The position numbers were made by a program, and so were the translations under genes. From Tubiluchus corallicola (lineage: Eukaryota; Animalia; Priapulida), in assembly GCA_030141605.1 (NCBI GenBank), contig JAQGDQ010002387.1:124001-188000 (forward strand): a stretch of 64,000 nucleotides of DNA, written 5' to 3'. Positions 5,047 through 64,000 of this stretch are shown here, in pieces; the first letter of the stretch is position 1; each line of letters starts with the position of its first letter. The notes below the pieces were generated by a model. That model searched no databases. It was not told the origin of the DNA and was given only the letters and a program-made list of their open reading frames with translations.

Positions 5047-5623
5047 AGGAAAGCCAGAACTCATCTTAAACTATAGCTCAAAACAATCTACCCTATAATA
5101 ATAATATTGAAAGGAAACATACTATTTCTTTCAATACTGATTTACGCAAAAGAATTATTACTACAGAAACGTAATTTCGCATTCGCGCTGTTAGTTCTTC
5201 GTTGTTACTGCTGTTACATGCATTTCGCAATTCGCTAATTACATCGGAAGAGCGCCTCTCAGTTCAAATGTGTTCAATTTTGACGTAGTGCAGACGTCCG
5301 AGAGCTACTGGCAAACTAGAAATTTGAATTTAAAACTTAAAATTTGCTGAGTTTTTGTGTATCACGCTGAATGTTGTACAGTAACACTGTACTTCAATTT
5401 TCGCTTTCGCAAACAGGTGCACCACGCTCGTGAAATGTTTTTGTGCTGTTGAAAATTATGTTCAGTTGTGATGTCATCACTAGTTAGGCTCGCTTGTCGT
5501 TAATTAGGTTATAGTCTATTATTTAAGTACCAGAAATACTTTGGTAGTGCTATAGGTCTTAAAATGTGTACTTTTACCGTACCTCAAAATGGGGTAGGAT
5601 ATATAAATTCACACAGTTTTTCT
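5047..5623. mobile_element. Non-autonomous TTAA-flanked element (Kolobok-like), with partial copies downstream of RAB23
   Basis: ttaa-AGGAAAGCC...GTTTTTCT-ttaa; the right half (from ~5373) aligns by eye with 27570-27824 (ttatgttca.ttgtgatgtcatcactagtt.ggctcg) and more weakly with 27933-28215. Confidence 0.6.
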
Positions 5624-11339: not shown

Positions 11340-12145
11340 ATGAAATGGCAACTTGTAACATTTTAACCTGTGACCCAGGAGTCAGAGGTCCACCAATTTT
11401 GGCATAACTGATACCATTCAGTTTATCTCTTTGAGACATTTCATTTGATATACTACATCATACTATTCCTAGACACCCAATGTATTCCTGTTCCTGACCC
11501 CCATTTTTCAGTTTTTGCCTCCTAGCGGAAAATTTCCCATCCCTCTAAGTGCCCCATATTCTGCCATACCCAGGAACTTGGCAACACCTAACCATATACC
11601 AGATATTATGGCCCCAGCTCAAAAACTGTCGGAGAAGATAGATCCTAAAGAAAAATAAATGAAGACCCACCCGCTCCATGACCTTTGACCCAGCAACTCC
11701 GGTCACATGTATACATAGTTCCCTTTGCCCAGAGAGTGTACCCTGTGAATTTGGTGTTCCTGCCCCTAAGCATGTAAAAGGACACCAAATGGCAGCCCCA
11801 AATTTTGCATTGTGGCCCTTCCCTCGGGCGTTTATAGCTTGTCAGCTTTTTGAAACCCCAGTTCCATATCTACCCCACAGTACCCAAATACTTGTGAAAA
11901 AGAATTGCAAAAAACCGAAAGCCCTAAGAGGAATTATGTCTTAAAGGAAAAACTGACCGATGCCTACTGCCCTTTCCCCTTGACCAAAGGTCAGTGGTTC
12001 CCTGCCCAGAGCTACCAAACCTGTGAGTTTGGTGACCCTATCTAACAAAGGTTTAAGAGTTGTTAAGCATTTAAGTTGCAGAGAATAAATAAGAATAAAT
12101 AACTCAATGAAAATCAGTAAGATTTTGCTATAGCTAAATCTTAAT
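11340..12145 (+). repeat. Interspersed non-autonomous repeat with 3' hairpin (Helitron/Helentron-associated type)
   Basis: GC-richer island with tgacctttgacc motifs, a gaataaataa repeat and terminal hairpin taagattttgc-tata-gctaaatctta (12118-12143). Classification is inferred. Confidence 0.5.
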
Positions 12146-27569: not shown

Positions 27570-28215
27570 TTGTACAGTAGCACTGGACTTCAATTTTTGT
27601 TTTTGCAGACATATACAACACACACGTGCAATGTTTGAACTATTGAAACTTATGTTCAATTGTGATGTCATCACTAGTTGGGCTCGTTTGCTCTTCATTA
27701 AGTTTTTAATCTATTATTTAATTATCAGAAACACACTGTGACATCATTACCGATGTTAAAATGTATTCTTTTTCTGCAGTTCAAAACGGGGTGTGTTATG
27801 AAAAATCATCCTGTTTTTCTTTAATCATGTCATGATGGCAGCATTGTTAGATTATTCATTAATCCAGTGATGAGCTTAAAATGTGAAATTGTCAATTTAA
27901 ATTTGCGATGTTTTGTATTTAATTGTCAGTCTTATACAGTAGTGCCAAGCTTCAATTTTTGCTTTTGAAAATGTGTGAAACTCTCATGATGGTTTCTACA
28001 TTTAGAAAAATTTTCTCACTTGTAAACTCACCGTTACCTATGCTTACCTGCTGTTAATGAATTTTTTCATATAATTTCCGTAGTGCTCCCGTAGGTATAA
28101 TATCACAGTCTCAATGTAAATCAGAAACTTTTGGTAATTATTGTAGTTAATAAAATGTATGTCTGAGACCAGGTCAAAAGAGTTTGGTCTGAGAAATCAT
28201 ACTATTTTCCTTTAA
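27570..28215. repeat. Two diverged partial copies of the 5047-5623 repeat family
   Basis: Both start tacagtag..c...cttcaatttt and end ttttc(c)tttaa; shared internal motifs with 5373-5627. Confidence 0.6.
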
Positions 28216-31982: not shown

Positions 31983-34900
31983 TCACACTTTGTCATCTGA
32001 AATGTAACAACAAATGTTTTACGTTTAATGCAAACTATGAAATGGCAAAGAAAATATTTGTCATTGATTAAGATATTTCATGCCATAGTAGATTTCAGGA
32101 ATTAAAAGAAAATCAGCGTAATTAAATATCAAATAGTGCTGTCGAAAGTTTGTTGGATACACCCAAGTTGAACACCAAATAATGGCACTTCAACATAAAT
32201 AATTAACTATAGTAAAAGTTAATATAGTTACAAGTCATAATAGTACCAATTGCATACAAGATAATGATACATCAGCATACAATAATAGTCGGGATATTGA
32301 TGAAAAACTTACCGTGGTACCACCACCTAGTCTTCTTTGGATTTTTGTTGCATGTGCGTACATAAAATGTGTTATCAGGTGGTCGTTTCTGCAACAAATG
32401 AAGGATAAATTATGACATTTTACTCGCATTGGAGGATCTGACAAAGCTAAACCATATCTAGAAGTACCTGTTCAATTATTTTTTATATTCTTGCATTTTT
32501 CATCAGAAGACATTTTTACGAAAAGTCACATATAAGTCAAAAGCTTCATAATGTTGATCATTAACAAGGTTTACCCGCTAAGCAGATTCTCCCACCCCTG
32601 GCCCGTCAGAAGTGCCTTAGTCAAGTTTGAATCTACGAGATAAATAGCCAAACTCAGTATGGTGAATGAAACCCACTCAAAGTAAACGATGGCAGTTACA
32701 CATCCATGAGTTGGCCAACCTTGGTGTTGCTTAACTTTTATTGCAAAGCACAGGCGCATGACCACTAGCCTATTTCCCTGAAATTTCACGTGTATTTTTC
32801 TCAATGTAGCTGACCAATGTATTTACAACTTCATTTACTGATTACTAATTACTGATTTTTTTACAAACCTTTTCCTTGCAGCTGCTTAGCATACTGACTA
32901 TACTTAAACAGATAGATTGTACAGAAAGCGCTGGTGACCAATCCTCTGTCAAGATGGATAGACAAATGTGGCCATTACTGTAGACATGTGGATGCACAGG
33001 AATGTGATTACCAGTGAAAACTACCTGTGGTAAAAATGCAGAAGTTCACTAAAATTCAGGAAAACGAAGACGTTTGTGGCTTCCTAGTTTGTCTACAAAC
33101 AAAGAAACCCAGTGTTCCTGGTTTAAAAATCCTCCGAGGAATTTTCCAGCACAATTATAGAGCTTACAAATCAATTTCGTCCTACTAAGCACAAAAAGTA
33201 GTGCCCAGCAGCAGAAGAAAAACTTCTGGCACTCCAACCATTTAATGTTTTCATTTTTGTTTCGTGGGTGAAGACACAAATTGTGCATGTTTTTTGCGTC
33301 CCTGAGACCGACTTTCCCTTTTCAACAAGAGGGGATAAAGATAAATGATTTTTTTCTAAAAATCACCCGGAGTTTGATTTGCAGTACTGACCAGAGTAAC
33401 TTTTCTATGTATGAGTTGTGCATAACACGACAGTCCTAAAACATTCAGCTCCAGCATTAAAAATTGCAAAGATTATAAAAGACATAGAACACTGTCACAA
33501 TAATACAATCGGCATTTAGAGAAACGCTACTGTTTCTCCCAAAATTTTCGATCTACTAAGCCACACGATACAATACACATGCCGGTAAGTAACAACATTT
33601 GCTTTTTTTCTAGATTGTATGTAGTAATTAGGACAGCTACGATGATTTCTGACTAGGCAATTTTGCTGCATTTTGAAAACTTTTGTTAATGTCGGATTAG
33701 TAATTAATAATTAACAGTAACTGAACTTTAGACGAATCTTGCACCCTTTCACCCTTACGCCCGGGGGCAATTGCTCCCTCTCGCCCCTACCTTGCTATGC
33801 CCCTGGCTACAGCAAAAGGTTGCAGGCAAAATTCCTTCACGCAAAATCAGGTGCAAATACACGACAATAAATCTCGCTTGATACAAAGAGCTACAAAGAC
33901 CATTTAGTAATCTGCCGGGAAGCAAAAACATACATAATAATTATGCTGTTTTATATTATCAGTGAGTTTTTAGGACATAATAATGCAATATGTACTGCTT
34001 TAATGCTTAAAATTAAATAAGAAAGTTGTTGATGAAATAAAAATGGTTTTGAGCAAAGTAAAAAAAATTGTCGTTAAAACGAAACATGAGTTAAGTGAGA
34101 AAAAGTGTCAAATGTTCAGCATTGTTACGTCACAAAAACAGGAGTTATTAAACGAGGTCTTACTGTATATGACTTTCAAAATTTAATTTACATAATACTT
34201 TATTTCATCTTTTGGATCTTAATGCTCTTTAAGAAGATGGAAGAAACTGTTTAAGGGAAATAAAGCTCTGGAGTAATTACCTCGGGTGAATCAAATGGAT
34301 ACCTATTACTAAATTTGAATAGTAGTTGAAAGCGTTCTCCCTCATACAGAGTACCTGTAGCACCTTCCATTTCTATTGTCCACCTATAATCATACATAAG
34401 TAACTATGTAAAATAATGAAGGCAGGGCCAACCATGCAAAATTTCATCTGCAGACCATACAACAAAATACCCTTGAATTTCTATTCCAAATCTTAACTTT
34501 ATAGATACACAGATCCAGTTATGAAAAACCAGGTCAATAAAGTGCAATTCATAATAAGTTTACATATAGCCGTATTTATACTCATCAACATGCAATTACA
34601 AGTTAGATCCCAGATGAAACCTTTACACGGATATCTAGGTTTCTGCACACTTAATGCCCACACAACTATAAACTCGCAATGATTTGCACAAAACACTAAA
34701 AACTTTTCAGTGTAGAACATTTTTACTAAAATAAAGTTTTGAAGACAATGTCAGTACATACGTGTGTAGACTGTGGTCTGCATTAACTTTTATCCCAGGA
34801 GGCGGATCTCGTACAAGTGTTGACAGCTCCTTCTGTAGTCGTTTCTGTTAAATTATTATTGTTATATTAGCTTAATATGTTACAACTGTTGTACGATATT

Positions 34901-37900
34901 ACATTGGACACAATAATTCACGAATTCTTATTAAAAAAGTTTAGACGACAATGGTGGTTACAGCCTATACTAGTAAAATAGTGACCGTGACTAGTAGCTA
35001 CTAACTATTTAAAAGCTTAATGCATTTGAAACAATATTTGATCATAATTTCGACAACTGTGACCTTCTATAACATTCTAATTTAAACAAGTACAGACAGC
35101 AATAAGCCTTTTATGCTATAAAGTGATGCCAGGACTCTCTTAATTCTTTTTAGGCAGTTTCACGCTTTTAATAATTTAGACCACTTGTGCACCTACTAAT
35201 GATTAATGATGACATACGGGCTCGTTTTTGTGCCTTGTAAATCCACTAATGGTCACCTGCCTGCAGATTGAGCCAAGTAAAACAAGGGTAGTAAAATATT
35301 CCCTTGGGTCAAATAAGGGACCAACTTGGAAACAAACATTTAGTTAGGAAAAATATGAGACTACTCGCTGGAGACATCATCTTTAATGATAAGAATAAAA
35401 AGTCCATGAGCTTTATTAGAATCAGAAGCAGATATTCTTTATTGCCAAAAGATTTTTTAAAAATCTGCTTTAAAAACTAATAAAGGGCATTCAACTTTTT
35501 ATTCATGATAATAAACATTTAGATCCTTTAGGTAAATATTATCCCTGGTCTATACCCAAAACAAGCTTTTTACAGTAAGTTGCTAACCCAACCAAGTATA
35601 CTTCAACTGTGGTTTCTTTACTGCCACAGAGCTACTACTGGCTTTCAGTACTATCATGTTTACTCTCAAATAAGGATAAGTTCGACGAAAGACGCAAGAT
35701 ACTTGAATTTTCTGAAACTACCTTCTCACATGGTAATGGAAAAACCAGGGCTGTCTCTCTCTCCTAGTCAATGCAACTGTGCTTTTCCTGTGTTTCATTT
35801 GTTGTGCCTCTGCAACTTTAATACGTGATTGTATGCTTTTATGTGTGATGTTTTTATTTGTAAATAATATAAAGAAACCAAAAAATTGGTTTTAGAATCT
35901 TTATGTGTTTCCCCCTTTTTATTTCAAGTCTTGTGTCTTTTTATTGTATTAATTGTGGGATTTTTTAATAATCAGCAAGGTGTGCAACTGGCTAATAACC
36001 ACTAAAAAGAATTTCAACTAATTAAATAAATTCTTTCCTAGGATTAGGAAATTAGGTGTTTCACAAATCTAACTCAGCCAGCACATGCATGGATATCACT
36101 GACAAACTGTATGTCTGTTCTCCATCACATAAATATGACAAACCAGTTATTAAAATTTAATGCAGAATTGAAAATATTACGGTTAACCTGTTTTTTACTC
36201 AAATACAGCCAAAGTTATACAACACACTTACATAAACTAACACTAGCTCAACAGTACCATATCAAGGCCTTGCTCAAACGAATATCAAGTACCTGGCATA
36301 AAAGAGTTTTTCAACAACCATGAACAACAGCAAGTACATTTGTACATGAGTACATCTATGGAATATTTGGCAAAATCCATATGGGCTGACAAAATCCTTA
36401 CTTCAAAAGTTGAAAGAGTGCTAGCATACAAAAGATGTTTTTAGAGCACTCGGTGCTTGTTTAAAAGACTTGACATTGGGGGCATTAACAATACCACTGC
36501 TTAAACTGTTCCATTCCTGCACAACACGGTAGGAGAAAAATGCTTGCTGATATGTGTGCATGAATGCTGAATATATAGTTTTTGCTAATGACATCAATGT
36601 AACTCTCTATGAGGATTCTCAAAGAACTCACTCCGATCCAAATTTGTGGCCGGATTCACTATCTTGAACATGCAGACAATTGTGTCATGGCTCTAATCTA
36701 GGGTAGGAACTGATATCGTTGGCAAGACGAAGACATCTTCTTTGGACTTTTTTATCTTCTCTTTAAAAGATACAGATTGCAGTGCCCTAATAACAACAGC
36801 ATATTCCAACAAAGGACTAATCAAAAGGTTTGTATATAGGTACAGCAACTGACGGCTCAGGGCATACGACTCTCTAATGATACCAATTCTTTGTTTAGCA
36901 GTCTTACATGAGTAATATAATTGTTGCTACCATATGCAGAATATCAATTGGAAGGTGCTGCATAGGAAGAGCAAGAAAGATGGTGGAATGCTTTTGCCCC
37001 CTAGTAAGGCCTACAAAAAGGTTAAGAAGATGCATTATGAGCATTTTGTGAATTCTTACAACATCATTGAATCATGACTAACACACATTAGGGAAACAAA
37101 GGCTGTTAAAGGGCAAGAAGAATTAATGAATTTTGCAGATGACTCGAGAATGGCCCCAGAAATACTGAATCATTGACCAGTATTAACAAAATAGAAGAAA
37201 TAAATAATCAGACAAATCTTTTGTGTATATTAGAGAAACTCCCAATGTACCTTTAACCAAGACAGAAAACAGAAGCATATAAAATTAGAATAAGTCAAAA
37301 ATGAAGTCCAACAGTTGACAATGTAGTGCATTTTGTTTAAGCTGCAGCTTTAGAAGCAACTGATCCAGTTTTCGGTAATTTAGGGTATGCCCAGACCAAG
37401 AAAGAAGGCCCCCAGATAGTGTTTACACGGGCAGCAAAAATTAGACTCTGGTACCCTTTTCCTTATACTCGTGGGGTACGCAATTGTTAAGATTCAGTAG
37501 CAGTGAAGAGATGGTCTTTATTCGTACATAAGAACAACGACTGGCGCATTTCACCTAACCACAGCTGTTAGGCCTGTGTCACACAGAAAAAGCCACAAAA
37601 AGCAAGCCATAATCCGTAAGGTATAAAGCGTCTTCCATCTTCCGTAAGGTGCATGTCATAATTCGCAGTATGCGCCTTGCTTTGTATAACTATGCGGGAG
37701 ACACAAAACTACTATATTTTAATATAATAGGTACTATAGTTTAATAGTTAAAATAATTTTACTCATTACAGAATAACAGATTGTCAGTCGCATACGTTGT
37801 ATATGCATAACATGATTGACTGGCATGCTGCCTCCTGCATGTAGTATACATTTATTATATGTATTGTAGTAATATGGCAGTAGTAATTAAGTGCTGTGGG

Positions 37901-40900
37901 TTAAATATGCCTTTTAATGTTTATAGTACATCGATGTTATGAATTGTTTTATACGTAATTCTTATGAAATGAATTTTGCATAGAAAAGCTTAATTATGCA
38001 AATTTTCACATTAGTGATAAGCAAAAATTCCTTATGGCAAATGAAATTAATGGCCAAAGGCTCAAAACGGCTTGCAAAGCTCCACTAGAGACCTTGATAA
38101 CATAGTTGCCCAATTCTGGCAGGTGGAAGTGTGTGAAGATGAAACCACTATTCTGAAGAAGATATCAAGATGATTATATATATATACTAATACTAATCTG
38201 TAATAAAACATACAGAGAATGTACAGTAATAAAATGTTGTAGGAGGATTCAGTAATTCTACCTAAGGATAATCACTACCAATTGCCAACACTATTGACAA
38301 TTGATAGTGATTATGCTTAGATAAACCCAATACCATTCTGAAGCAAGTATCCTGAGCTCCCAAAAACTTACCTGTGCTCCCTGTGGCACAGTCTAGATTG
38401 CAGGGTCGTAAAAACAAGCTACAAAATGACTGTGGAAATCTTAAATTTGCTAAATATGGCATATGCCGAGGAAATAAATGCCAAAAGTATTAATGGCAGC
38501 CCTAGAAAGATTTGGTATTAGCCTCACTTTGCAGTTAGTAAAACAAACAAGCCAGATAAAAACAAGAATTGTGTTTAATTGTGCTGTTCAATTTGAAGGT
38601 ACTACTCTCAACAGGAATGTTACGCAGGGCCCTGCTTCAGGAGTTGTGCTTAAATTTAGAAAAAACCAAATAGATTTCATGGCTGATCATGAATGCATGT
38701 TTCACCAAGCAAAGGTACTGCAGAGGATAGTGATATACAAAGATTTTTATGATGGGAAAATGGTTGTTTAAACGCATAACCAAAAGTCTACAGAATGGCC
38801 GTACACACATTCTGTGGAATGTGGTGACCAAGTGCAGCAGCTTTTGCACTCCAGAGTACTGCAAGGGATAACAGGCATTTGTATGATGAAAATGTATTGG
38901 AAGGCCATTAACTCCGATTTCCGATGATCCCGAGGATGCAGAACCATTGAGGCCAAATCGTCTGCTTTTGGCTCACAATCACGCTTTGCTGCCACAAGGT
39001 ATTTTTTGAGACTGATCGATACAAACACAAGTGACAACGCATTCAGCTCTTAGCGACAACAACAACAACAACAAAAAATAGACTATGCCAAAGAGAAATC
39101 TCAAAGTTAATGATGTGGTGCTTGTGAAGGAGATCAGATATCTGTAGCCACTGTGAAATATGTAACAAGCTCATGATGGCCTGAAGGAGTGAAGGATAGA
39201 TTTTTGGAGCAACCCATACAGAAGCTTTGTCTTCTGAAGGGTGCTGACAAATTGCTTGTTGAACATGTTTGTCAAAATGCTCTGGTCAAGTTTGCATTAG
39301 AGAGGGGGAGTGTTGCTGCCATATGTAGAATAGGAAGTTGGAAAGTGCTGGCCTAGTTATGAATGGACTTTGTATTTGAAAGAGACCTTTACAATGGGTA
39401 GAATAATCTTCTTACACACTGCATACCTTTCAATGTAACCATTTTGGGCTGTACTCTTGCCACTAGCATCTCTTCCTCTCACATTTCTATCTTCATCATC
39501 CTGCCTTCCCTTGCACATTTTTACTCAGCTTCACTGACAGACATTGCATCTCTTGCTCTGATGGCACATATAGCTGTTACAGCTGGGCTTTAAGCATTTG
39601 AAGCAAAGTCTTTTCTTTCTGGACAGCTCCAATCTGTCTTCTGGCTTCATGGCAGCCAAGTTTGCACATTCAGTTACGAAGTGTTCACCTATGCAGATGC
39701 TGCATGTACTAGGTCTCTTTGACTCACCTGATATTTTGAATAAAAAATTTGTTAGGCAACTTGCTTTAGCATCTTTTCTCGCCGTGAGTTTCTGGCATCT
39801 GTTCTTTTTCGGTCTGTATATTCTAAACTGATTTAGTAATCATTAAATTTCAGTGATCACATGGAAACCCGAGCCAAGATATCAGATCTTACCACCATAA
39901 GGCATCATGTGATTAAGTAAAAACATAGAAGGTATCAATAGTGACTTGTATAATTCTGAGAAAAGCACACTCAACAGTTTCAGCTGAAGAAGCCCACTGG
40001 TCAGACTGAGACTCAATACTGTCGAGATCTATTGTGGTCGTAAACATGTCAGAATCAAATTGTGATTTGATTTTAGCATATAATTTTAACAAAGCAGGGC
40101 TCCAATAGAAAGATGCATCCTTTATCTACACACTAATATAAAGAAAAGTTGAAACATACCTCCTATTCATAAAAAAATTACTGTTAGCGTCACGAGAACA
40201 GACTAAGACCGAGCGATTTCCTGAAATGTTTTCATTTGGGAGTTAGCAGATAGCAATATTTTTATCTACTGCTGTGTGCCACAGCCTAGGTGTTTTGGAT
40301 ATAAGCACGTGGTGCCTCCTGGTGTTTGTTTTTCCTAGTTTAGACAGGTGAGCTAGGTCAGGAAATAGGCCATTGGCCTCATTTCACAGTTAGCATATGA
40401 AAGAAGTGAGTCACCGGTATGCGGCAAAGATGTAAGTTTCATTTCTTCACATTTCGTCATGTCATATTATTATTAATTATCATTATACCAGTTACTTAAT
40501 GTTTTGACGTTGGTTTAGCAGAAAGAATTTTTAATTTTTCTTCAGCTAAAACGAAGTCGAACGCATGTCGCGTACAGTTTTATATCTCAGTCTGTGTACC
40601 TAGAAGAGACGGCCATATTGCTTTCGAGAACAGAACACCTGGACAAGGGTAGTACAGCATGGCTTCCGGGCAAGGACGAGATTTGTTGAGACTAAATGAA
40701 GAACAGCTTCAGCAAAAAACCGTACAAGAGTTAAGAAAGTTGCTACGGGATAAGGGATTACAAGTCGCTGGAAGCAAAGCAGAATTAGTCCAACGAGTAC
40801 TGGACAGCGAGATTACTGCAGAGGTAACCACGCCTACTTCAAAGAGTGAGAGTGTTAAAACGGCTCGTGACCAATCAGGCGAGGTGGGAGTGATGCAAAC

Positions 40901-43900
40901 GGACAACACCACGTCCAGCAGTGTGAAAACTTCTGCAACAAACTTAAGCAGGTTTGATTTGCATGCCTTGAAAATTAAAGAACAGAAACTAAAATTACAA
41001 GCCATGGAAATCAAACATTTGAGCCTGCAAAAGGCTAGTCAGGGTTCTGCTAGTTCAGATGTGGCTTCGCCTGTAGCCAAAGAAATATCAAGTGCAGAAA
41101 AGGTCAATGAGTGGATTGAAAAGTCACACAAAGATGTCACAGAAGTCTCGTCACCTGAAGGGCTCATCAAACCCGAAGCTTACGTTACTATGGCTACCAA
41201 TGATAAATACGCCATAGGTGCTCTAGTACTGGCTTCTTCGCTATGTAATGTTGGTATTACACTTAGTTTAGCGATATTAATTACAACTGGAATTTCTAAA
41301 CCCATAATGACGCAGATAAGCGCCACCTTTGATCACGTGGAGCTTGTGGAAGCTATTGACAGTTCACATGTAAAAAGTCTACAATTACTAGGACGGCCCG
41401 AATTAAAGGTGACTTTTACAAAACTGCATTGTTGGAGGCTAACTCAGTTCTCAAAATTTGATTTTTGGATTCTGATGTAATTGTCCTGCAAAACATAGAT
41501 GATTTATTTAGCTGGAACGAACTGTCAGCAGTTGCAGATATTGGCTGGCCTGATTGTTTTAATAGCGGACTTTTCGTTTTTGAACCTAATCTTAGCACGT
41601 ACAGTGAATTGAGGTCATTCGCTCAGTCAGATTCAAGCACATTCGACGGTGGAGAGCAAGGTCTACTAAACCAGTATTTTAAAGCCTGGAATACAGCTTT
41701 TGATAAACGATTGCCATACAGGTATAATGTAGCAGTAAAGCAGTTTCGAGAAAGTGTCAAGGTTGCTCATTTCATGGGTCCTAGTAAGCCCTGGGACAGT
41801 ATACGCAGCATTTATCACAAGCAAGTGGCGCCAGCTACAGGTAAAACAGACTTTGAATCTGAAATGTTAAATATTTGGTGGTCACTTTACATTCATGAGG
41901 TCGAACCAAACTGGCCTCATGAATTAGAACTAATAAATAAAGCTAATGTTCAGCAGCACATTCCTACCCGAACAAAACTCAGTCCTGATGCACCTGAATT
42001 TGCCACTCGCTTACATGACAGGAGCAGTGTTCATAGAAAATTATACACATGATGACGGGGCGAGATATACCAGGCTTTTACAATTTTGCACGGGCGAAGC
42101 AAAACGGGTTGTCGAAAGTTGCAGTTATATGGACCCGCAGATCGCATACAGTCATGCTAAGCAAATGCTTATTGAACGTTTCGGGTCACCCTTTATTGTA
42201 ACACAAGCGTGGTTGGCTAAAATAAATGAGTTTGCAGTCATAAAAATAATGAAAAGGAAAAACTCAGGGAATTTTCTGACTTGATGATTGGTTGTGTAGA
42301 GACATTAAAGGCCATGGACAATTTAGCCGAAATAAATACACAAACAAGTTTGCTTCAAGTCATTAAGAAACTCCCATTCCGTTTGCAAGACAAATGGAGA
42401 GACGTTGTTACCAAGTTAAATAAACATGATGGCAGAAATCCTACAATTTACGACGTGGTGGGATTTGTCAAAGAGGCGACTGAAAAAATAAACCATCCCG
42501 TGTTTGGTGACCTTGCAACCGGTGGTCAAATGAACATTACAAAACGCAAGAATAAATTAGCAACTAGGAATTTCGCATGCACTACCTTTCGAACAAGAAG
42601 TTCATCCAGAGAAGAAAAATCGAGTCAAACAGGCGGAACGCCAAAGGATAGAAAATTAAGCAGTAGAGATGTCAGAAAATGTGTTCTGCAACTCAGCCGA
42701 GCATGTTTCTCTAAAAAACTGTGAACAGTTTAAAGACAAGTCGGAAGAAGAGAGACTACAGTTTGCTCGGAAAAGTCGCTTATGTTTTAACTGCTTACAG
42801 AAAGGGAACCAAAGAGCTGGAAGCTGTTACAAACCAGGCTGTACAAGACAGGGATGCAGAAGAAAACATTCTGCTCTGCTTCATGACGCTCTGGAGAAGT
42901 GGGCTCCTTCCAATGGCGAGAGGTCAACAAATGTTGAAGCAACAAGTTGCGCTGTCACTACAACCAAACTGTCAACAAGGGCTGTGCTCCCCATCACTCC
43001 TGTAAAGGTACAGGTGCAAGGCGGACGTCCAATTCAGACAATGGCTTTGTTGGACCCAGGATCAACTAATACGTTCTGTTCCAAGGCCATATATGATGAG
43101 CTGGGAGCTGTTGGCAAGAAACAAGTCGTGTCACTGACTACAATTGAAAAGAAGCATTCAAAAATACATACTTCTGTGACCAAGATGTACGTCAGTAAGT
43201 TGGATGGATCAAACAAAATGAAACTTCCCTTTGTCTTTGTCAGGCCATCTTTGATGTTGGATGTGACTGACTATTTGGTAGACGAACAAGACATTAGTAA
43301 CTGGCCTCATCTCAAAGATGTTCCTTTGACGCTAGCTGATTCACGTGAACTGCAGCTCGGGTTAATTATAGGACAAGACGTCTCTGATGCATTAATGCCT
43401 TTAGAAACACGCTGTGGGCCAAGAGGAGTTCCGTATGCAACAAGGACTAGACTTGGATGGACATTAAATGGCCTGATAGGAGGCGGCAATGAGGACACTA
43501 AAAAGCTGTCAAACAACCTTCTTCAGGCAGAACAGGTTACCAGCCAGCGACAAGTCGAAAAATTTTGGAAAATGGACGCTGTTGACGATAGCATACAGTA
43601 CTCCCATGACGATAAGTTGGCGCTGAGCATTTGGGAGAAGTCCATCACCAAAAGAAATGGTCACTACGAATTGGAGATACCTTTTAAGTCTAATGATGAC
43701 AACATTCCTGACAGTTTTCAAATGGCTTCAAAGAGGTTGGCAAGCCTTCGCTGTAGACTCAGCAAGAATAAGTTGTTGCATGAAAAATACTCCCAAGCCA
43801 TGGCTGATCTGCTCCAAAAGGGATACGCAGAAGAAGTTGTTGAACATGATACGAATGTTGCAACATGGTACTTGTCACATTTTCCAGTTTTTAATGAGAA

Positions 43901-46900
43901 CAAACCCGAAAAAACTAGGATCGTATTTGATTGTTCGGCAACAGAAGACGCAGTCTCTCTCAACATGTTGGCACTACAAGGTCCAGATCTGACTAATAAA
44001 TTGCTTGGTGTCCTGCTATGCTTTAGAAAGTATCCAGTAGTAATCATGGCTGATGTTCGTGAGATGTTTCACCAGGTGTACGTAGCACCGAAGAATAGGG
44101 ACATGTTGAGATTTCTCTGGTGGAATGATGGAAACCTAGATGCGCCACCCTCCATATTTCGAATGACAGTCCACCTTTTTGGCGGTGTGTGGTCGCCCAG
44201 CGTAGCTTCATTTGCTCTCCAACAGACAGCTAGAGATAACGTCAACTGTTTTGATGAGCATGCATTAAATACGGTGGTACATAGCTTCTATGTCGACGAC
44301 CCCTTTAAATCTGTGGAAACTGCAAAAGAACCAATCGATTTGATGTCAAAATTAATACAGATTCTAGACACTGGAGGTTTCCACTTGACCAAATGGATGA
44401 GTAACGACAGAGACGTATTAGCATGTGTGCCAATTGAAGAACGAGGAAAGAACATTAAGAATCTTGATCTAACCCAGGACGATCTACCAAATGAACGAGC
44501 CTTAGGGGTTAAATGGGATGTCAAAAGCGATATACTTGGCATTCAGGTTAAGCTGCGAGAAAAGCCAAGCACCAAGCGGGGACTACTTAGGTCATTAGCA
44601 AGCACCTATGATCCCCTAGGCATGGTCTCGCCTTTCATTTTACAAGCGAAAAGACTGTTTCAGAACGAATGCCGGATCCAGGAAAAATCATGGGATGATA
44701 GACTGGAAGAAGAGACTGAGAAAAGTTGGGATAAATGGAAATCTGATTGTCCTGCACTAGAATACTTTACGCTAGACAGATGCCTGAAGCCAAGAGATTT
44801 TGGAAGAATTGCTGACTTGCAGCTGCATCACTTCAGCGATGCATCCCAGTATGCTTACGGCACTGTAACTTATGCACGGATGGAAAATGCTGATGGAGTT
44901 GTACACACAGCATTTGTAATGGCAAAGTCTAGGCTAGCACCTATGAAAAGCCTAACCATACCACGCCTTGAGTTGTGCACAGCAGTATTAGCCTCAACTG
45001 TCGACAAACAACTGAGAAGAGAATTGTCCATACCCATCAGCGAGTTCGTGTTTTGGTGTGACAGCACTATAGTGCTTCAATACATACGCAACACCACAAG
45101 ACGTTTCCATACTTTCGTGCAAAATAGAGTGACTACCATACTAGAAACTTCGTCGCCAGTTCAGTGGCATTATATCAGTACCGCAGATAATCCAGCTGAT
45201 GACGTATCCCGAGGAATGGACGCCAATGCCTTAGTAAAATCTCAGCGTTGGAAATATGGTCCTAGTTTTCTGCGAAAAGCCCAACATGAATGGCCGCAGC
45301 ATGATCCGAGCAAAGAAAATGATGAACTTAACGACGATAAAGAAGTCAAGCAGACGACATGTTCCACTACTGTAAAACACATACAGGATAGAAACGACAC
45401 AATTAGCAAGCACATTGAACATTTTTCGTCATTTTACAACCTCAAGAAAGCAGCAGCTTGGATTCTTCGTCTGAAGGACATTTTGCAAAAGAAGATCAGA
45501 GGAGAAAAACCTGAAGTACCTCCAAAGTTAACAGTGCAAGAGCTGACAAGAGCTCAAGATGCATTAGTAAAATTCGTTCGGACTCAGAACTTTGGCATGG
45601 AATATAAGGCGCTTACACAAAAATCTGCTAAATTGATGCGCATCCCTAAATCAAGCAGGCTACGAAAACTTGATCCGTTCATTTGCGAGAAGGGTTTGCT
45701 ACGTGTTGGTGGACGACTGAAGGCGCCAGGCACCCTATGATATTACCGAGAAAGCATAAGCTGTCAGAGCTAATCATTCGTCATTACCACGAAACGAACG
45801 GCCACATTGGCAGGGAACATGTCATAGCTTTAGTAAGAAATGAATTTCGGATAATTCATGCAAGAGCCTTGGCACGCAAAGTCCTGTACGAATGCCGACA
45901 TTGCAGGCTTCGCAAGCCATCTTTCCTTGATCAAAAGATGGCAGATTTGCCTATTGACAGACTACAGCCATCAGACGCTTTTACCACTATTGGCATTGAT
46001 TGTTTTGGCCCGATACAGACCAAGAGAGGTCGCTCACACATTAAACGCTATGGAGTCATCTTTACATGCCTAGCTACACGCAGTATTCACTTGGAAGTCC
46101 TATTTGACATGTCCACTGATTCGGTTATAAAGGCGATTAACAGATTTTGCTGCCGCCGAAGGAAGCCAGACAAAATCAGGTCAGATTGTGGGACTAATTT
46201 TGTAGGAGCAAGCAGAGAGCTGAGAAAGTCTATAGCCGAGTGGAACAATGACGTCATACATTCAGAGCTTCTTCAGCGGCAAATAGAATGGCAATTCAAC
46301 CCACCAAGAGCCCCACACATGGAAGGTGTTTGGGAGTCTCTCATTAAGAGTGTGAAGAAGATTCTCTTTCCAACGAACAAACCTTGGATGATGAAGGCTT
46401 GGCAACCCTGTTTTGTATAGTTGAAAATATAGTTAATAGCAGACCGCTAACTACAGTTTCTGACGATGTTGACGACTTCAATCCGTTGACTCCGAATCAC
46501 TTTCTTCAGATCAGCGCAGTTCCAAACCTGCCTTTGGGAAAGTTTTGTCAGGCAGATCTCTTTCGACGAAAGTGGAGACAAATACAGTATCTCTCGGATA
46601 TCTTTTGGCGCAGATGGTTGACTGAATATTTGCCCACTCTACAGACTCGAAGCAAATGGAACAAGGAGCAGAAGAATGTTGAAATAGGAGACATCGTATT
46701 AGTTCTGGATGAGACACCAAGGAATCACTGGATGCTAGGACGGATCATTGAAGCACGGAAAAGCAGTGATGGACTAGTGAGAAGTGTGATGTTGAAGACT
46801 AGAGATGGGACTCTAAAACGACCAATTCATAAAATAAGTTTAATCGAATGTAACAATTAGTTGATTTTGTTAAGCATTCATAAACTGTATGTTTAAGTTA

Positions 46901-49900
46901 AACTTTGAAGTAGATGTATGTCAATTTAGTCAGTCATGATATGTTATTACACTGTTGGTTTCCTTTAATTTTGTAAATGCTGCAGGAGAGCATTTAAGGA
47001 GGCAGTGTTTTGGATATAAGCACGTGGTGCCTCCTGGTGTTTGTTTTTCCTAGTTTAGACAGGTGAGCTAGGTCAGGAAATAGGCCATTGGCCTCATTTC
47101 ACAGTTAGCATATGAAATAAGTGAGTCACCGGTATGCGGCAAAGATGTAAGTTTCATTTCTTCACATTTCGTCATGTCATATTATTATTAATTATCATTA
47201 TACCAGTTACTTAATGTTTTGACGTTGGTTTAGCAGAAAGAATTTTTAATTTTTCTTCAGATAAAACGAAGTCGAACGCATGTCGTGTACACTAGGTAAT
47301 AGGAATGCTTCAGAAAAAAGAACCAAACTGTAAACACTGAAAAGTTAAAAAGAGCTTCAGATGAATTTTTTCAATGTGCGCCATTTTACAGTGTCTGTGT
47401 GGGCCAGTAAGTGGCGTACTCTACCGGCGTTGTTTTGTAACTTTTGATTTTCTTTCGAAACGCGGCACAAATAGCAAAGAAGGGTTGCAGTTTATACAAT
47501 GAAAATTGGAACATACGATACTTTGAGGCTTCATACTGTACAAAAAATATGACTGTATGAAGAAGAAAGCCAATGTTCTAGCACATTAAGTGCTTGTTAA
47601 GAACAATAATTTTCTTGCTTGTAGTCCTTCGTTGTTTTGAATACATGACTTTTTGTATCATGCAACTTTGAAGGTTTTTGACTTTCCAGCAGATTTCACT
47701 TTAAAGATGTTTTCACGTGTCAGCTCCAAGATGCGTAAAGATTAGGAAACTTGAAACTTTGAAGCCCTGTACATTTCCTTGAGTACTGTTTCTTTCAGTT
47801 GCTCAGCACATATATACACTCACATACTGACTGACCTTACTGACTAACCAGCTAACTAGCTATGATTTACTTAGTGTCGGTTAGTTATTTAATTAGTTAG
47901 TGTTGGTCTAGCTAAGCTAATCAGAGAGTCAATCAATTAGTTTTGGCAATTTTGTGGTATGGCAGGTTTGGTGGTATGGCAGGTTTGGCGATATGGCACA
48001 TTTAGCACTATGGCGGTATAGCAGGTTTGGCAATGTGGCATTTGGCGGGTGGTGTTGGTATGGGAAGGAGGTAGAGTGTCGACAATGGGACTGATATAGG
48101 AAGGTAGAAGGGTGTTAGGGTGTGAGGAAAACCACCTAAACTGCAAGTGCGCCACAATGGCCCGAAATAAAGACCACCGAGCATTCCCTTTGGAATGCCG
48201 CTATGAACATTAATCCACTCATAGATAATACATTTAAAACTCCTGACAAAGACAATTTGTTACCTAGAGTCTTAATTGATACAAAGGATCACATTTCAGC
48301 CCCTTTAGCACATGTTATAAACTTATCCCTCGAAAATGGATGTATTCCTAATAAGCTAAAGGAGTCGGTAATTGTTCCTTTGTTTAAAGCTAAGAACCCT
48401 ATGGACTTGAGGAATTATAGACCCATCTCCCTCCTACCATTTTTTCTAAAATTTTTGAAAACTTTTTGAGTTCAGTTGTCAGATTACCTAAACAAAAAAA
48501 AATATTATTAATACAGAACAGTTTGGGTTCAGGAAAGGTTGTTCAACTGAAATAGCTTTAGTTAAAATTGTAGAAAACAAAATAATTAAATACAGAAGGT
48601 AAAAAAGGTCACTTGGTATTTTTTGCTACCTGTCAAAAGCTTTTGACTCGGTCGATCATGATATACTACTATCAAAACTATTTTACTATGGAATCAGGGA
48701 CAAGGCTCATCAGCGGTTAGAAAATTACCTTAAAGAGCATACACAAGTAGTTAAATATAATGGTTGTTTCTCTTCAGAAAAAATATAACTCATGGTGTGC
48801 CGCAAGGGTCAATTTTGAGACCACTTTTGTTCTAAATATATATAAATGATTTATTACATTTCCTAATTAGTTCTGTGGAAGTTGTAACTGTATATTTTTA
48901 GGTGCTGCCATCTATTAACTAATCACTTTACATTTTACCAGCTAAACTCACCCATAATATAATTGTTCGGTCCAGTGAATATGCATACTCACTGGATCTC
49001 TCCCTATTTTACTGTAATGGTATTTGTGAAGCCAAGTTTGCATAATTACCTATACCTATATATACTGACTGGATTCTACTTCTAGTCACTCTCTGTCTCA
49101 CTCTCAATGCAGTGCAGAAGTCATGCTAGTCGTGCTACACAACTGTCTAACTCACACTCTGTGCAGTGCAGCAGTCGTGATCCTCATTTTACTTACTGTC
49201 TAACTCTCAGTGATCAGTGCAGGACATTCTTGTCCTCAGTGTGCAGTGTAGCAGTCATTCTACATATGTGTATGTAGTCTAATAAATGTTTCAGTTTTGT
49301 GCAGATATGTGGTATAGTGTTTTATTCTTTTTCTACAAAGTGTTCAACTACAACTTCATACAAGACTTTCACAAGTTCCAAAATGATTCAATATGCTGAC
49401 GACACTAGCCTCCTTTTTAATATTAATCAGTTCAATGCGCAAAACACAGACAAGATAAATGATGAACTCGAACAAATTCCTATGTGATTCAAAATTAATA
49501 AGCTTTCCCCAAATCCGTCAAAAACTAAATACATTGTTTTTAGGTCGCGTTATAAAAATATTCTAAGTAATATTGACATCAACATAGCTCAGGTGCCCAT
49601 AACATGAGTAAATGAAATGAAATTTTTAGGTGTAATCATTAATGAATTTTTAGATTGGCAAGCACACATTAATAAGCTATGAGTTAAAATGTCTAAAAAC
49701 ATAGGAATTATTTAACATATAAAACAATATACTTCCAAAAAAACATATGATTTCACTATACAGTAGTCTTGTTTTGCCATATCTGACCTACTGTGCAATC
49801 CTGTGGGGTACAACGTATGCCAGTGTGTTAAACAGTATGACAACGCAAATGCAACCGTCAGATGTATAACTTACGGAAAAGATTCCAGATAGGCAACAAT

Positions 49901-51059: not shown

Positions 51060-52740
51060 AAATTTATTAACAATGCAAAATATATAATTATGCTGACAAT
51101 AGGCCGTTATAAGCAGGACAGAATGTGCTCCAAACATTAAACAAACTAGATTCTAATTGTAGCAAAGTGTTGAACTGGTTTGAAGATAATAGCATGAAAG
51201 CAAATTCAGAAAAATTCCACGTTGTTGCCATTGGAAATAAATCACAAGCACTAAATCTAAACTTCGACATTGACGCAAAAAATCAAAATTAATGTGACAA
51301 TCAAATAAAAATCTTGGGTACATGTTTGCAAAATCCAATATAAAAACAAGTAGAAGTCCTTCCTAACTGTAAGTAGAAGAATTGCAGCATAATTTATTAT
51401 TTATATCATTCTTTCACCCTGTTAAAGGAAAAGCGGATAATTGTGTAAACATTAGTTCAGAATAAAGAATGCTCTAAAGTGATGAAAACTACAAAAGCTT
51501 TTTTTAAATCAAAGCTTAGATTAAATAATAATTACCTCGCATACTCAAATTTCGTTAAACTTTCAAAGCCACGCGCGGCTCAGTGATTCTTCTAAGATTG
51601 GCAGCGGCGCGTTTTTGTCACGTTAGCGTGGTCGATAAATAGAAGGCGGTACCATGGTAACAATGATCATGAACTACAGTGTTAGTTTCTCACGTCATAT
51701 GGATGTAGAGCCCATTTTCGTGACATCATACGTTTAAGCAGTAACACTTACGCAAACGTGCTTAACGCGCAAGGGAGATGTCTGCCATTGCACAAACTGT
51801 ATTAGTTTCTGACGTAAGCAATAGCTGCGTTCGGTTGCCGTTAATTAACTTTCTAAGCTAATTATTCAAATATAAGAAACATTTGCTAACTTTGTAGGCA
51901 AGAAAATGTGTATTTTGGACAGTAAATTAAAATGAGATTGAGTCTAAACAATCGTCCAGCCTTCCTTTAAAGTTTAATTACTGTCTGCCTGTATGGCATT
52001 TTAGTAGTTACGCAGTAACGAACAAACGTGAAAAAATTTAAGAAAGGGCACTGAGATTTACCTACAGTGATTATGCCTTAAGTTATGAAACATGCTAAAC
52101 AAATTTAAAAATTCGTTAATTCTTTGCGTATAAGAACTTTAGCCTTAGAAATATTTAAAATTCTAAACAAAGAAGGAGCTAGCTACTTATACGACCTGAT
52201 GGCAATTAAAGAATCTAAGTATTCATTCCGATATATTAAAATTACAAATGTACCACGCATCAAATGCACTAAATACGGCTAAACTCTGCGACATTCTGCC
52301 GCAGTTCGCGGAATCAATTGCCAAACGATAAGCGAAATGCTTAATGTAGTTATGAACTTATGGTATGTTTCAAAATATAAATTCGTGGAAAGATGACGAA
52401 TATAAATGTACTGCATGTCGCAGAAATTGAAAATTTTATGGTTCTGATTAAGCTGTACTTCCAAACTATGAACTGTTTTCGAATGTGATTTTAACTCGAT
52501 TAATTAAAGGCGTTGATTTTAGCATCTAAGTTAGCATTTATGATTTTAAAGTCTGCTAGGATCCAAAGTGTTTTATTGTAGCAGTATAATTGTAAAATCT
52601 TTTTATCGCCTAAGCACTATTTTTACTAGTAGACTGGCTTTGTAATATATGTCGGCTTAAAAGTTATTAGGAGTTAGTGTTTTTTGTGTTTATGTAAAAC
52701 CCGACTTTAAATAAAATTTGATTTATTTTGATTGATTTGA
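51060..52740 (+). mobile_element. Degenerate LINE 3' portion with (TTGA)-like tail, interrupted by a TTAA element
   Basis: YADN..., NWFEDNSMKANSEKFH (~51170-51220), RTLALEIFKILN...YLYDL...NQLPN (~52130-52330), tail aataaaatttgatttattttgattgatttga. Confidence 0.7.
51426..51966. mobile_element. Non-autonomous TTAA-flanked DNA transposon (Kolobok-like), 541 bp
   Basis: TTAA at 51422-51425 and 51967-51970; imperfect TIRs AGGAAAAGCGGATAATTG and CAATCGTCCAGCCTTCCT; interrupts a LINE fragment. Confidence 0.7.
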
Positions 52741-54296: not shown

Positions 54297-54785
54297 GTGC
54301 ACTGTAACAATACCATAGATATGGTTTGTTTAGATAAAAGATCTTGGTGATTGCTTAGGAGGGTTCTGCATTCGAGACTGTCATGCTGCTCTGATCTTCT
54401 TTTTTCACTTCTTCAGTTTTGTCACTAAGTGCAGGTTGCATATACAAGCTAAATTCTTCACGCCATTTTTTCCATGCTTGTGACAGATTGCGTGATTCGA
54501 AGTTTAGTGCGTTAGGTGGTTTTAGCTGATTCATAGTTCTCTACAAATTTGCCGTCCGAATAAATACTCAAAACAACTAGTTCACTTCTGACACCATGTT
54601 ACACGCTACAATAATATTAGCAACCAGACAAATGCGTGCATAATAAAGTAGTATTTATTAAACTAATTAGGAACTTAAACAAAGAAGATCAGAGCAGCAT
54701 GGCAGTCTCGAATGCAGAACACTCCTAAGCAATCACCAAGATCTTTTATCTACACAAACCATATCTATGGTATTGTTACATGCAC
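54297..54785. repeat. Long inverted repeat (~105-bp arms, 278-bp spacer)
   Basis: 54297-54402 is the reverse complement of 54681-54785 with 3 mismatches and 1 indel. Confidence 0.9.
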
Positions 54786-61400: not shown

Positions 61401-61879
61401 CTTTAGACTGCACACGTATTCGTGTCTGCAAGTGAAAACACACACAGTGCTCTGTACTTGAGACCAAGCTGTTTCGTTTACCTGTTCTTATATAGCAAGT
61501 CATATTGCCTGAACGCTATTTGATGTATTCTTCACTAATCCGCAACATTACCATAAATACGTAACGATCAATAAATCAACTGCTTTATCAGGGTGTAACA
61601 TAGACCTTGTATGTGTTTGCCTGGCATTAAATACCCACATGATTTTAAACAACGCAGTGTGGTTTATTTATTCTTTAATGTAGCTTGATCATTGCCTAGC
61701 TAGAACAAAAGAATTCAGTGTGTTGGTTATCCTCGTACTACAGCAGTGCATTTGGATTGTATAAAGTGTATAAAGGTACATTGTGTAAAGTTGGCTGTAA
61801 CTTCATAGGAATTTGCAACGAATATGGAAACTGTGATGGTTTGCCGTTGTTATACGATTTTGACCTAGGGACAACAAAA

Positions 61880-64000
61880 ATGTCTGGATTTTTTTCTAAA
61901 ATTTTCTCAAAAAGACATTCATCTTCTGACGTGGACGAAGAGACAACAGAAAAGGTAGAATCACCCAGAAAAGGAGAGAAACCAAAGCGAACTAAATCTG
62001 AGAAGAAAAGTAAGAAGAAGGGGGGAAGCTTCTTGGTTGAAGAAGTGAGTAGTACTAGAGAAGAATTAACAGAAGATGCAAAAGAACATCTGGAGGCAAG
62101 TAATGACCCAACAGAAAACTTTGGCAGTAGACATGCAGGCAAAGATTCTAAGCCAGATGATACAGTATGCATTCAAGACATTGATATAAATATTGTTGAA
62201 AACACAGATGATTTGGATGCAAATGAAAGCAGCATTGGCTTTGAATGGGGTGAAGAAGAGGAAAGTTTACTTGAAGAAGGTGATGATGTAGAAGTAGCTG
62301 GGTCTTCCATTTTGTCCAATGAGGAATTATTTCTTGAAAAGGAAGGCAAAAAGGAAACTGATTCCGGAAAAACAGATCTACAGAAAGATGATCCGGGTGT
62401 TCTTATAAAAGATGAAGTCAAAGGAAGCAGTTTCTTGGAAGGTGTTTTAATTGCCCTAGAGCAAGATAAGCAAGTGATAAATATTCACGAAGAACAGGAA
62501 TGTTTGTTAAAGACTGCACAAACAATGAGTGTACAGAAAGATCATTTTATGGAAATAAAGCAAAGTGATGAACATGTTTTGAGTGATGACACAGCAATAT
62601 ATTTACTGCAAGATAAGCAGATTTCTCTTGAATTTCAGCCAGTGAATTCTTTTCCAGAAGTTGTTAAAATGGAAAATCAAAATTCAGTTTCCGAAGTTAC
62701 TGATAACAGAGAGGACAATGAATCATTTGAAGGGGATGCTAGTCATTTGGAAGAAAAAGCTATACAGCACATCAGGGTTAATGACATAACTGATGTAAGA
62801 GCCAAAATCCAAGAGGAAGTAAAAAGTAGTACTATCATTGACTCGAATTTTATTTCGCAATCATTCATCGATCAGAGTGGTGATGACATTAAGAAAGATC
62901 TGTTTATTGAAAACAATGTTTATGTTGAGCCTGTTGGTAGCTGCGATGAGGAAAATGGTAAACTAGAAAATTCACCAGACAGAGCTTTTACTTCAAAAAA
63001 TACGAGCGAGCATGCAGATACTAAGGAGGAACTTTGTATAAAAAAAGAAACTGCAGTAGAAAGTGGAATAGTGAATACTGATGATTCTGGAAAAGTTGAC
63101 CTAAGTCCTGTTGATAGTGATAATAAAATTGGTGTATTTGGCACTCCCGGCATCCTTCATTCGAGTGGTATTTCTTTTGGTGAAAATGACAGATCAAAAC
63201 TACCAGCTGAGGTTAACCTTGAAGACATTTCAATCCTAAAAAGTGAAAATCACCTTTCTAATGATGATACTCAACAAGAACATTCCAGTCAAATCTCTGG
63301 CTCTAGTTTAGTTCTTGAATGCTCGATTCAAGGTGCAAACAAAACAGGAGGCAATTCACAACATTCCAGTCAAGACATAGATGTGAGCTCAAGTCAAGAA
63401 CACTTCCCTCGGGAAATAGACAGTACCTCACGCCAAGAACATTCCTTTCAAAAAAACAATATTAACTCGAATTCAGAATCTTTTACAAAAGAAGTAGTCA
63501 GCAGTGAAGACAATTCAGAATGTTTTACTAATGAAGCAGACTATAGCTTAAGTTTTGCAAGCAAAGTCAACATAAGTGCTGGGAAAGTAAAAATTGCAAT
63601 TAACAATGGTAATAATTATCCTCAAGAAATTCTGCTCGATAATCAAGATGAGAAGAAACACGTTTGTGTAACGTCATTTGTGTCTGATAAACTTCTTTAC
63701 CCTGATGGTCAACCTTGTGATGACAATACTGGTAAAACAATAGAAAAGAATGAGTTACCAGGAGGAAGCAATGAAACTGCAGATATGAAACTAAATATAG
63801 TACATGCCAGTCTTGGTACAGGTCCTTGGGCTGCTGTCATTGAAAGTGATGACAGAAACCTTGTGTGCAGCAACACCATTAAGCAAACAGGAGTAGTGGA
63901 AAATTCATCAATAACTATTGTAGAACAAGACGTAGGAAAAAGAAATGATGCTGTCTTAAAAGGAAATGAAGAAAAAGGTAGCAGCTTTGGTGATGAAGTG
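61880..64000 (+). CDS. Large acidic, probably disordered coding exon (at least 707 aa, open to window end); possible alternative first exon of LRRFIP or a nested gene
   Basis: ATG in aaaaATG context; I read all 707 codons to 64000 without a stop (MSGFFSKIFSKRHSSSDVDEETTEK...SSFGDEV). In-frame upstream stop TAG at 61697-61699. E/D/S/K rich with no recognisable domain. Absent from the ORF track, presumably because it has no stop in the window. Confidence 0.8.
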   Translation, partial: MSGFFSKIFSKRHSSSDVDEETTEKVESPRKGEKPKRTKSEKKSKKKGGSFLVEEVSSTREELTEDAKEHLEASNDPTENFGSRHAGKDSKPDDTVCIQDIDINIVENTDDLDANESSIGFEWGEEEESLLEEGDDVEVAGSSILSNEELFLEKEGKKETDSGKTDLQKDDPGVLIKDEVKGSSFLEGVLIALEQDKQVINIHEEQECLLKTAQTMSVQKDHFMEIKQSDEHVLSDDTAIYLLQDKQISLEFQPVNSFPEVVKMENQNSVSEVTDNREDNESFEGDASHLEEKAIQHIRVNDITDVRAKIQEEVKSSTIIDSNFISQSFIDQSGDDIKKDLFIENNVYVEPVGSCDEENGKLENSPDRAFTSKNTSEHADTKEELCIKKETAVESGIVNTDDSGKVDLSPVDSDNKIGVFGTPGILHSSGISFGENDRSKLPAEVNLEDISILKSENHLSNDDTQQEHSSQISGSSLVLECSIQGANKTGGNSQHSSQDIDVSSSQEHFPREIDSTSRQEHSFQKNNINSNSESFTKEVVSSEDNSECFTNEADYSLSFASKVNISAGKVKIAINNGNNYPQEILLDNQDEKKHVCVTSFVSDKLLYPDGQPCDDNTGKTIEKNELPGGSNETADMKLNIVHASLGTGPWAAVIESDDRNLVCSNTIKQTGVVENSSITIVEQDVGKRNDAVLKGNEEKGSSFGDEV

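Follow-up and report, generated by a model that had tools for sequence, protein, structure and literature searches.

Extra domains have become fixed in several retrotransposons that carry long terminal repeats (LTRs). An AlkB domain is carried by orchid Gypsy elements (PMC9289625), and planarian Burro and rotifer elements carry several extra domains, which in Burro lie in frame within the polyprotein (PMC6431247). In the accessible portions of these reports, the carriers are Gypsy-type elements documented in many copies, the targets of their domains are RNA, nucleotides, apoptosis or ubiquitin, and no glycosyltransferase is named. Here we describe an element that shares with them an apparently host-derived domain and differs in the points just listed: a BEL/Pao-like LTR element, known from a single copy, in the priapulid Tubiluchus corallicola (assembly GCA_030141605.1, contig JAQGDQ010002387.1, positions 124,001 to 188,000). 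This stretch of 64,000 nucleotides is called the window, and all coordinates refer to it. The element occupies 40291-47291 (7001 nt) on the forward strand and contains, within its Gag, a glycogenin domain that lacks the arm on which glycogenin glucosylates itself and whose changes bear the mark of purifying selection.

The closest described protein is glycogenin-1 (GYG1, CAZy family GT8; PDB 1ll2 and 3t7n). Its Tyr195 is the site of self-glucosylation, and Tyr197 touches the partner subunit at D160 and W128, according to the available part of the source (PMC12267440). A second relevant enzyme is Gat1 of Toxoplasma and Pythium (PDB 6mw5), described in the accessible part of its report as a glycogenin-like cytoplasmic GT8 enzyme that does not glucosylate itself and modifies the glycan of another protein (10.1101/764241). 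Like Gat1, the element's domain would be a cytoplasmic glycogenin-like GT8 without self-glucosylation. Gat1, however, uses a galactose donor, and its fold match to the domain is weaker (E 1.5e-15 versus 1e-36 for glycogenin-1); furthermore, the element has retained Gln164, of the glycogenin type, and, at 214, a hydrophobic residue; these positions probably correspond to Gat1 Thr180 and Ser233.

Two further systems invite comparison. LTR-mediated retrocopies likewise place an intronless host coding sequence, in sense orientation and in frame, between LTR-element sequences, as far as the available part of their description goes (PMC5131818), whereas here gag-pol is largely kept, and the insert has diverged deeply and bears a signature of selection. 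The baculovirus p13 and giant-virus p13-like proteins also bring a GT8 fold into a virus-like agent, but in the accessible part of that report they are stand-alone genes of large DNA viruses (PMC4133818). Being only 15-17% identical to the element's domain, with E 2e-3 by fold, they were rejected as its donor.

Glycogenin domain and its missing acceptor arm

The domain is encoded in two halves. The N half (41175-41459, host residues ~4-99) shares its frame with the Gag ATG at 40659 and matches PDB glycogenin-1 with E 1e-21; the C half (41462-41911), in another frame beyond a break near 41460, matches with E 1e-36 and stays stop-free until 42050. As the initial annotation had described, the domain is intronless and free of internal stops, with a single frame break near 41460, and the second half runs on in frame into the Gag linker. 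The match begins at host residue 3-5 and stops at the end of the catalytic domain, which, together with the lack of introns, is consistent with capture from an mRNA. Introns do occur in host genes nearby, such as those separating the UBE2W exons. Around the insert we found neither a polyA tract (longest A run 4) nor a flanking duplication, and the longest word common to the junction regions is 7 nt and lies away from the boundaries. A retrocopy made by a long interspersed nuclear element (LINE) and inserted into the element was rejected for want of a polyA tail and a flanking duplication.

The metal- and donor-binding apparatus expected of GT8 enzymes (DxD motif, His and uridine diphosphate (UDP)-glucose residues) is present with one change, D163E. 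The UDP-binding, DxD and other motifs pointed out earlier are all there, and the kept residues comprise T11, Y15, R77, T83, K86, D102, D104, D125, W128, N133, D160, Q164, H212, K218 and W220; every catalytic and donor-binding position checked is retained except Asp163. The C half without the arm is predicted to keep the glycogenin fold (mean predicted local distance difference test (pLDDT) 79; template-modelling (TM) score 0.78-0.82 to glycogenin-1), although this prediction, made for a half domain on a glycogenin alignment, indicates compatibility only. The domain thus has in common with glycogenin-1 its sequence, the predicted fold of its C half and its metal and donor residues.

What sets it apart is the absence of the acceptor arm, of Asp163 and of the synthase-binding tail, and its fusion inside Gag. 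From the YN motif to the HF motif, the spacer measures 13 residues here, compared to 23 in 262 of the 263 glycogenins that the pattern fits (out of 280 matches) and 30 in the remaining one. Exactly ten residues, comprising the arm with Tyr195 and Tyr197, are missing in frame at 41729-41734, and with them the Tyr195 acceptor that defines a functional primer. Human Asp163 (rabbit Asp162) is replaced by Glu at 41654-41656, a position that is Asp in 263/263 pattern-scored matches and in 120/121 aligned cores. A literature search gave no support for the idea that galactinol synthases carry Glu at this position. The motif WE.G..D[YF], which we take to be the C-terminal glycogen-synthase-binding motif, is found in 192 of the 280 glycogenin matches and is absent from three frames of the 390 nt 3' of the domain. 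The earlier description of a complete catalytic domain therefore needs correcting. Judged by its sequence, the domain is a glycogenin by descent, yet it lacks two defining features of a functional primer.

The loss of the acceptor arm, Tyr197 and the synthase-binding tail makes priming, and tethering by covalent glucan, unlikely for this form. The functions proposed initially accordingly need revising, and a dimerisation surface would have to do without the Tyr197 cross-dimer contact reported in the accessible part of PMC12267440.

The domain is strongly diverged. Against 121 host cores its best identity is 55% and its median 47%, and a lower median is seen in only 5 of the 121 hosts. In a quick tree built on 67 rows it has a branch of 1.49 (median 0.41) and groups with animal glycogenins, inside a 46-row animal-rich group with an SH-like approximate likelihood-ratio (SH-aLRT) support of 91; the phylogeny called for by the initial annotation thus placed the domain on a long branch among animal sequences without fixing its sister or donor taxon. 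Because the LTRs are only 1% apart, this divergence cannot all postdate insertion. The domain agrees with the majority residue in 0.83 of the 109 conserved columns but in only 0.26 of the 135 variable ones. When host cores were mutated neutrally to the domain's overall distance, conserved columns matched at 0.67 +/- 0.06, and 0.83 was reached in 1 of 400 runs. The mean BLOSUM score of the changes, +0.53 observed against -0.68 under neutrality, was reached in none of the 400. Neutral runs accumulated 4.4 stops on average and remained stop-free in 2.75% of cases. This shows that purifying selection acted along the domain's branch. The proposal that the domain was captured from mRNA and carried in Gag is therefore in line with both the anatomy and the selection pattern, but the latter does not separate selection in the element from selection in the host.

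Setting within a BEL/Pao Gag

Gag starts at 40659 with a SAP domain (~40707-40805), followed by a segment rich in helix-forming residues and a low-complexity linker reaching 41174. Long Gags of related elements are laid out as an optional SAP, a helical segment, a variable linker, a PAM2-like motif and the capsid; a SAP heads the Gag of four relatives (P0187, P0217, P0231 and P0246) among the best 120 listed. In the element the PAM2-like motif lies at 41978-42001, in frame with the glycogenin C half. The pattern for this motif, written with the element's own motif already known, occurs in 30 of 86 long relative Gags and in none of 276 glycogenin tails; in a profile version, 8 of 1449 glycogenin tail windows reach the element's score. 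These counts make it unlikely that the PAM2-like tail is a host glycogenin tail, and we read both the SAP and the PAM2-like motif, by sequence comparison, as native features of this BEL/Pao group. The insert consequently sits between the SAP/coiled-coil head and the PAM2-like motif, flanked on either side by Gag-type sequence, and neither junction breaks the frame. Since the linker, measured between two landmarks, varies from 83 to 255 residues in 24 relatives, this is the most length-tolerant part of Gag.

The element is bounded by LTRs of 286 nt each (40291-40576 and 47006-47291) with TG...CA ends and 3 mismatches (~1% divergence), and flanked by the target-site duplication CTAGG (40286-40290 and 47292-47296), as had been reported. 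A polypurine-rich tract (46996-47005) precedes the 3' LTR; by eye, no canonical primer-binding site of the tRNA-Arg/Gly type used by BEL/Pao was recognised after the 5' LTR. Both the LTR size and the total length fall within the ranges of the Belpaoviridae (0.2-1.2 kb and 4.2-10 kb; PMC8742986). A Pfam scan bore out the domain order given initially, recovering SAP (E 8e-9), GT8, Peptidase_A17, RVT_1, integrase and DUF5641 in BEL/Pao order, that is Gag, protease, reverse transcriptase, RNase H and integrase with the Pao peptidase/RNase H domain. PF05380 is carried by all 120 of the Pol relatives listed (the best 120 of 4025, themselves found among 8000 scored). By LTRs, size, polypurine tract and domain order we therefore classify the element as BEL/Pao. 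With other members it shares LTR size, total length, polypurine tract, domain order, Peptidase_A17 and DUF5641, and its Pol is 41-46% identical to elements of echinoderms, nemerteans, molluscs, cnidarians and crustaceans among the matches listed. It differs from them in the ~245-residue glycogenin domain in the Gag linker, for which a glycogenin profile gave no match in 119 Pol relatives (one partial relative left out).

This copy of the element is defective. The polyprotein, said earlier to read through, is interrupted by six frame breaks (~41460, 42035, 42245, 42683, 45725 and 46366), three of which are small, lie near homopolymer runs and have a pattern like that of sequencing errors. The copy also has three multi-base frameshifting deletions. 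At ~42035, some 40-100 codons of the linker and the start of the capsid are lost, leaving 31 codons between two Gag landmarks that are 70-137 codons apart in 20 relatives; two further breaks cost a few codons each. The capsid remnant (42030-42680) consequently lacks its start and lies in two frames. Zinc knuckles, protease, reverse transcriptase and RNase H follow at 42660-45737, and integrase with the DUF5641 tail at 45719-46860 in two further frames. Pol retains 1026 stop-free codons, with gaps of only 2-3 columns at variable places, which is in keeping with a recent loss of function. Of the suggestion that the element belongs to an active lineage, the recent insertion stands, given LTRs ~1% apart, whereas the copy itself is dead.

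Upstream, 36988-39126 (+) holds an older, heavily deleted BEL/Pao relic with pieces of Gag, reverse transcriptase and tail (E down to 4e-27); its nucleotide sequence is not similar to that of the young element, and no match to the glycogenin profile lies near it. A BEL/Pao Gag zinc-knuckle fragment (E 7e-16) lies on the opposite strand at 39369-39734 (-). The young element thus lies within a small cluster of BEL/Pao remnants, 5' of host UBE2W exons at 32848-33045 (-) and 34710-34847 (-), the first of which is identical to human at 49 of 54 positions. Elsewhere in the window, a short frame at 48140-48466 (+) gave nothing in Pfam and presumably resembles the start of a LINE reverse transcriptase. 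An inverted repeat at 54303-54780 with 103-nt arms, 96% complementary, is like a miniature inverted-repeat transposable element (MITE). A dispersed 71-nt repeat, 61-83% identical, occurs at 5440-5510, 27634-27704 and 51781-51851. Finally, a 767-codon acidic, low-complexity open frame at 61700-64000 (+) runs off the window and has no credible Pfam match.

Explanations for a glycogenin domain in Gag

We tentatively favour, while placing it somewhat short of an even chance, a reading in which the domain is a Gag-tethered glucosyltransferase without an acceptor tyrosine of its own, captured long ago, kept by selection in the element lineage and acting in trans. The coding sequence of a host glycogenin mRNA would have been taken into the Gag linker by template switching, the route described for LTR-mediated retrocopies in the accessible part of PMC5131818. 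The domain would then have been kept under selection inside the element lineage, and the arm, with self-priming, lost in the family. The placement of both in-frame junctions at the domain's own ends, within a variable linker, counts in favour of such a Gag module. That Gat1 works in trans with this fold supports the reading by analogy (10.1101/764241, as far as its available part shows). The tethered domain may accordingly transfer glucose to other molecules, catalysis being suggested over mere binding; candidate acceptors are cytoplasmic glucan ends, or some glycan or protein close to particles during assembly. A glycogenin mutant with Tyr changed to Phe is reported still to transfer to added maltosides. 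The broader proposal, that a retrotransposon lineage, by shedding the self-acceptor arm, made of the glycogen primer a glucosyltransferase borne by Gag and acting in trans, and so linked particle assembly to glycogen or cytoplasmic glycosylation, is possible but doubtful.

Several results weigh against a selected, trans-acting Gag domain. The fusion is known from one copy only. A glycogenin search of 5462 candidates of 479-2000 amino acids returned 16 matches, all plain glycogenins, with no fusion, although absence among long proteins is weak evidence. The best 150 of 1940 glycogenin matches together with the earlier 16 (163 proteins) have nothing in common with the element's Gag or Pol. PF01501 occurs in 0 of the best 120 Pol relatives, whose best full-length identity is 46%, and in the best 120 of 576 proteins from a further search there was no fusion, at a best identity of 51%. 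The D163E change may reduce activity. The selection test cannot place selection, as a recently captured, divergent host paralogue would give the same pattern. GC content at third codon positions (GC3) is 0.34 in the domain and 0.42 in pol (p 0.02), and the domain has thus not fully taken on the element's composition. Lastly, several other multi-base deletions are present in this copy, such that one in-frame 30-nt deletion would be expected somewhere by decay; only its position argues otherwise.

Other searches were equally negative. No retroelement Pfam family was found in 23 odd-looking glycogenin matches. Contig scans gave 0 of 80 candidates in JGI metagenomes with the glycogenin half as query, and none in IMG/VR or phages; a Pol contig scan found 2 loci at 41%, neither with glycogenin, and the ESM Atlas returned nothing for ORF1 and only GT8 clusters for ORF2. 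A weak colinear glycogenin-profile match at ~11178-11474 (-) (1.4 bits, 5 stops; the best of 20 shorter shuffles reached 0.1 bits) could be read as an ancient relic but was set aside as probably chance. The initial annotation knew of no glycogenin-Gag fusion, and this holds for our protein searches with GT8 and BEL/Pao families and for the literature, where no glycogenin or GT8 domain in an LTR element was found among the entries listed and 'glyco' is absent from the main texts of two BEL/Pao surveys (PMC3118150, PMC6238403); Repbase, Dfam, GyDB and supplements lay outside the search and could hold such a family. The nearest relatives sampled are at most 46% (full-length Pol) and at most 60% (glycogenin half) identical, and the element's family is not among them. 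The negative protein and contig searches simply neither support nor refute carriage at the level of the family, since that family, and probably the host species, is unsampled.

The same observations can be read as those of a passenger: a host glycogenin paralogue, divergent already, would recently have been copied by an LTR-mediated route, its selection earned in the host gene, and the fusion would never have helped the element. Animals commonly carry such retrocopies, which often lie in frame, according to the accessible part of PMC5131818, and no second copy turned up among protein and contig searches. But retrocopies in that account are flanked by discontinuous element sequence, whereas nearly all of gag-pol is kept here. 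Moreover, both junctions are in frame at the domain ends, without untranslated region, polyA or synthase-binding tail, and no host-type protein among the 263 scored lacks the arm. The domain's GC3, which suits a passenger in falling between that of pol and that of a single host frame of biased composition (0.25, p 0.01), settles nothing. The slow evolution of the neighbouring UBE2W exon hints weakly that the host is not fast-evolving overall. We lean towards the element, and not a host paralogue, as the place where selection acted, and regard a passenger as rather unlikely. An assembly chimera of host transcript-like sequence and element might seem to be suggested by the three small breaks near homopolymer runs, but the in-frame junctions, the matching LTRs and target-site duplication, the intronless state of the domain in an intron-containing genome and its long branch make this extremely improbable.

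Two alternatives concern instead what a selected domain would do. Gag might have been placed on glycogen-rich cytoplasm by a non-catalytic module that binds glucan or UDP-sugar or oligomerises, a use with which D163E, the lost acceptor and the retained acceptor-side residues D125, W128 and D160 would agree. The metal and donor residues, however, are all retained and not obviously needed for binding alone, and the cross-dimer contact is gone with Tyr197 (available part of PMC12267440); we consider such a module improbable. Alternatively, the family might encode a complete self-glucosylating glycogenin, with which Gag would build a short glucan on its own chain, and the arm would be missing only through damage to this dead copy. 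The other multi-base deletions of the copy fit this, and so does the fact that the 9 remaining arm positions are retained (ratio 0.73) as well as the domain elsewhere (0.72-0.78). On the other side, a random lesion would take just the arm in frame and spare all catalytic motifs with a chance of roughly 1% (estimated post hoc). The C-loop region, which positions the tyrosine, also shows the lowest retention of any segment (0.47), although hosts too vary most there. Self-glucosylation in the family thus appears more improbable still, and the absence of the arm probably characterises the family instead of reflecting damage to this copy.

Meaning for BEL/Pao and glycogenin biology

The element is real and more specific than first described; a selected, acceptor-less glycogenin in Gag would be a surprise, and it rests on one broken copy. 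If the domain is a passenger only, the locus is still a clean example of LTR-mediated gene capture. If a Gag-tethered glucosyltransferase is the true account, a carbohydrate-active enzyme in Gag would add sugar metabolism to the interface between host and transposon, the extra domains of LTR elements otherwise acting, in the accessible parts of their descriptions, on RNA, nucleotides, lipids, apoptosis and ubiquitin. The arm-less domain would also be a natural test of glycogenin's switch between self-priming and action in trans, the reverse of the path from Gat1 to glycogenin outlined in the available part of 10.1101/764241. For the family itself, it would give a handle on the biology of BEL/Pao particles, which the profile of the International Committee on Taxonomy of Viruses (ICTV) calls poorly understood.

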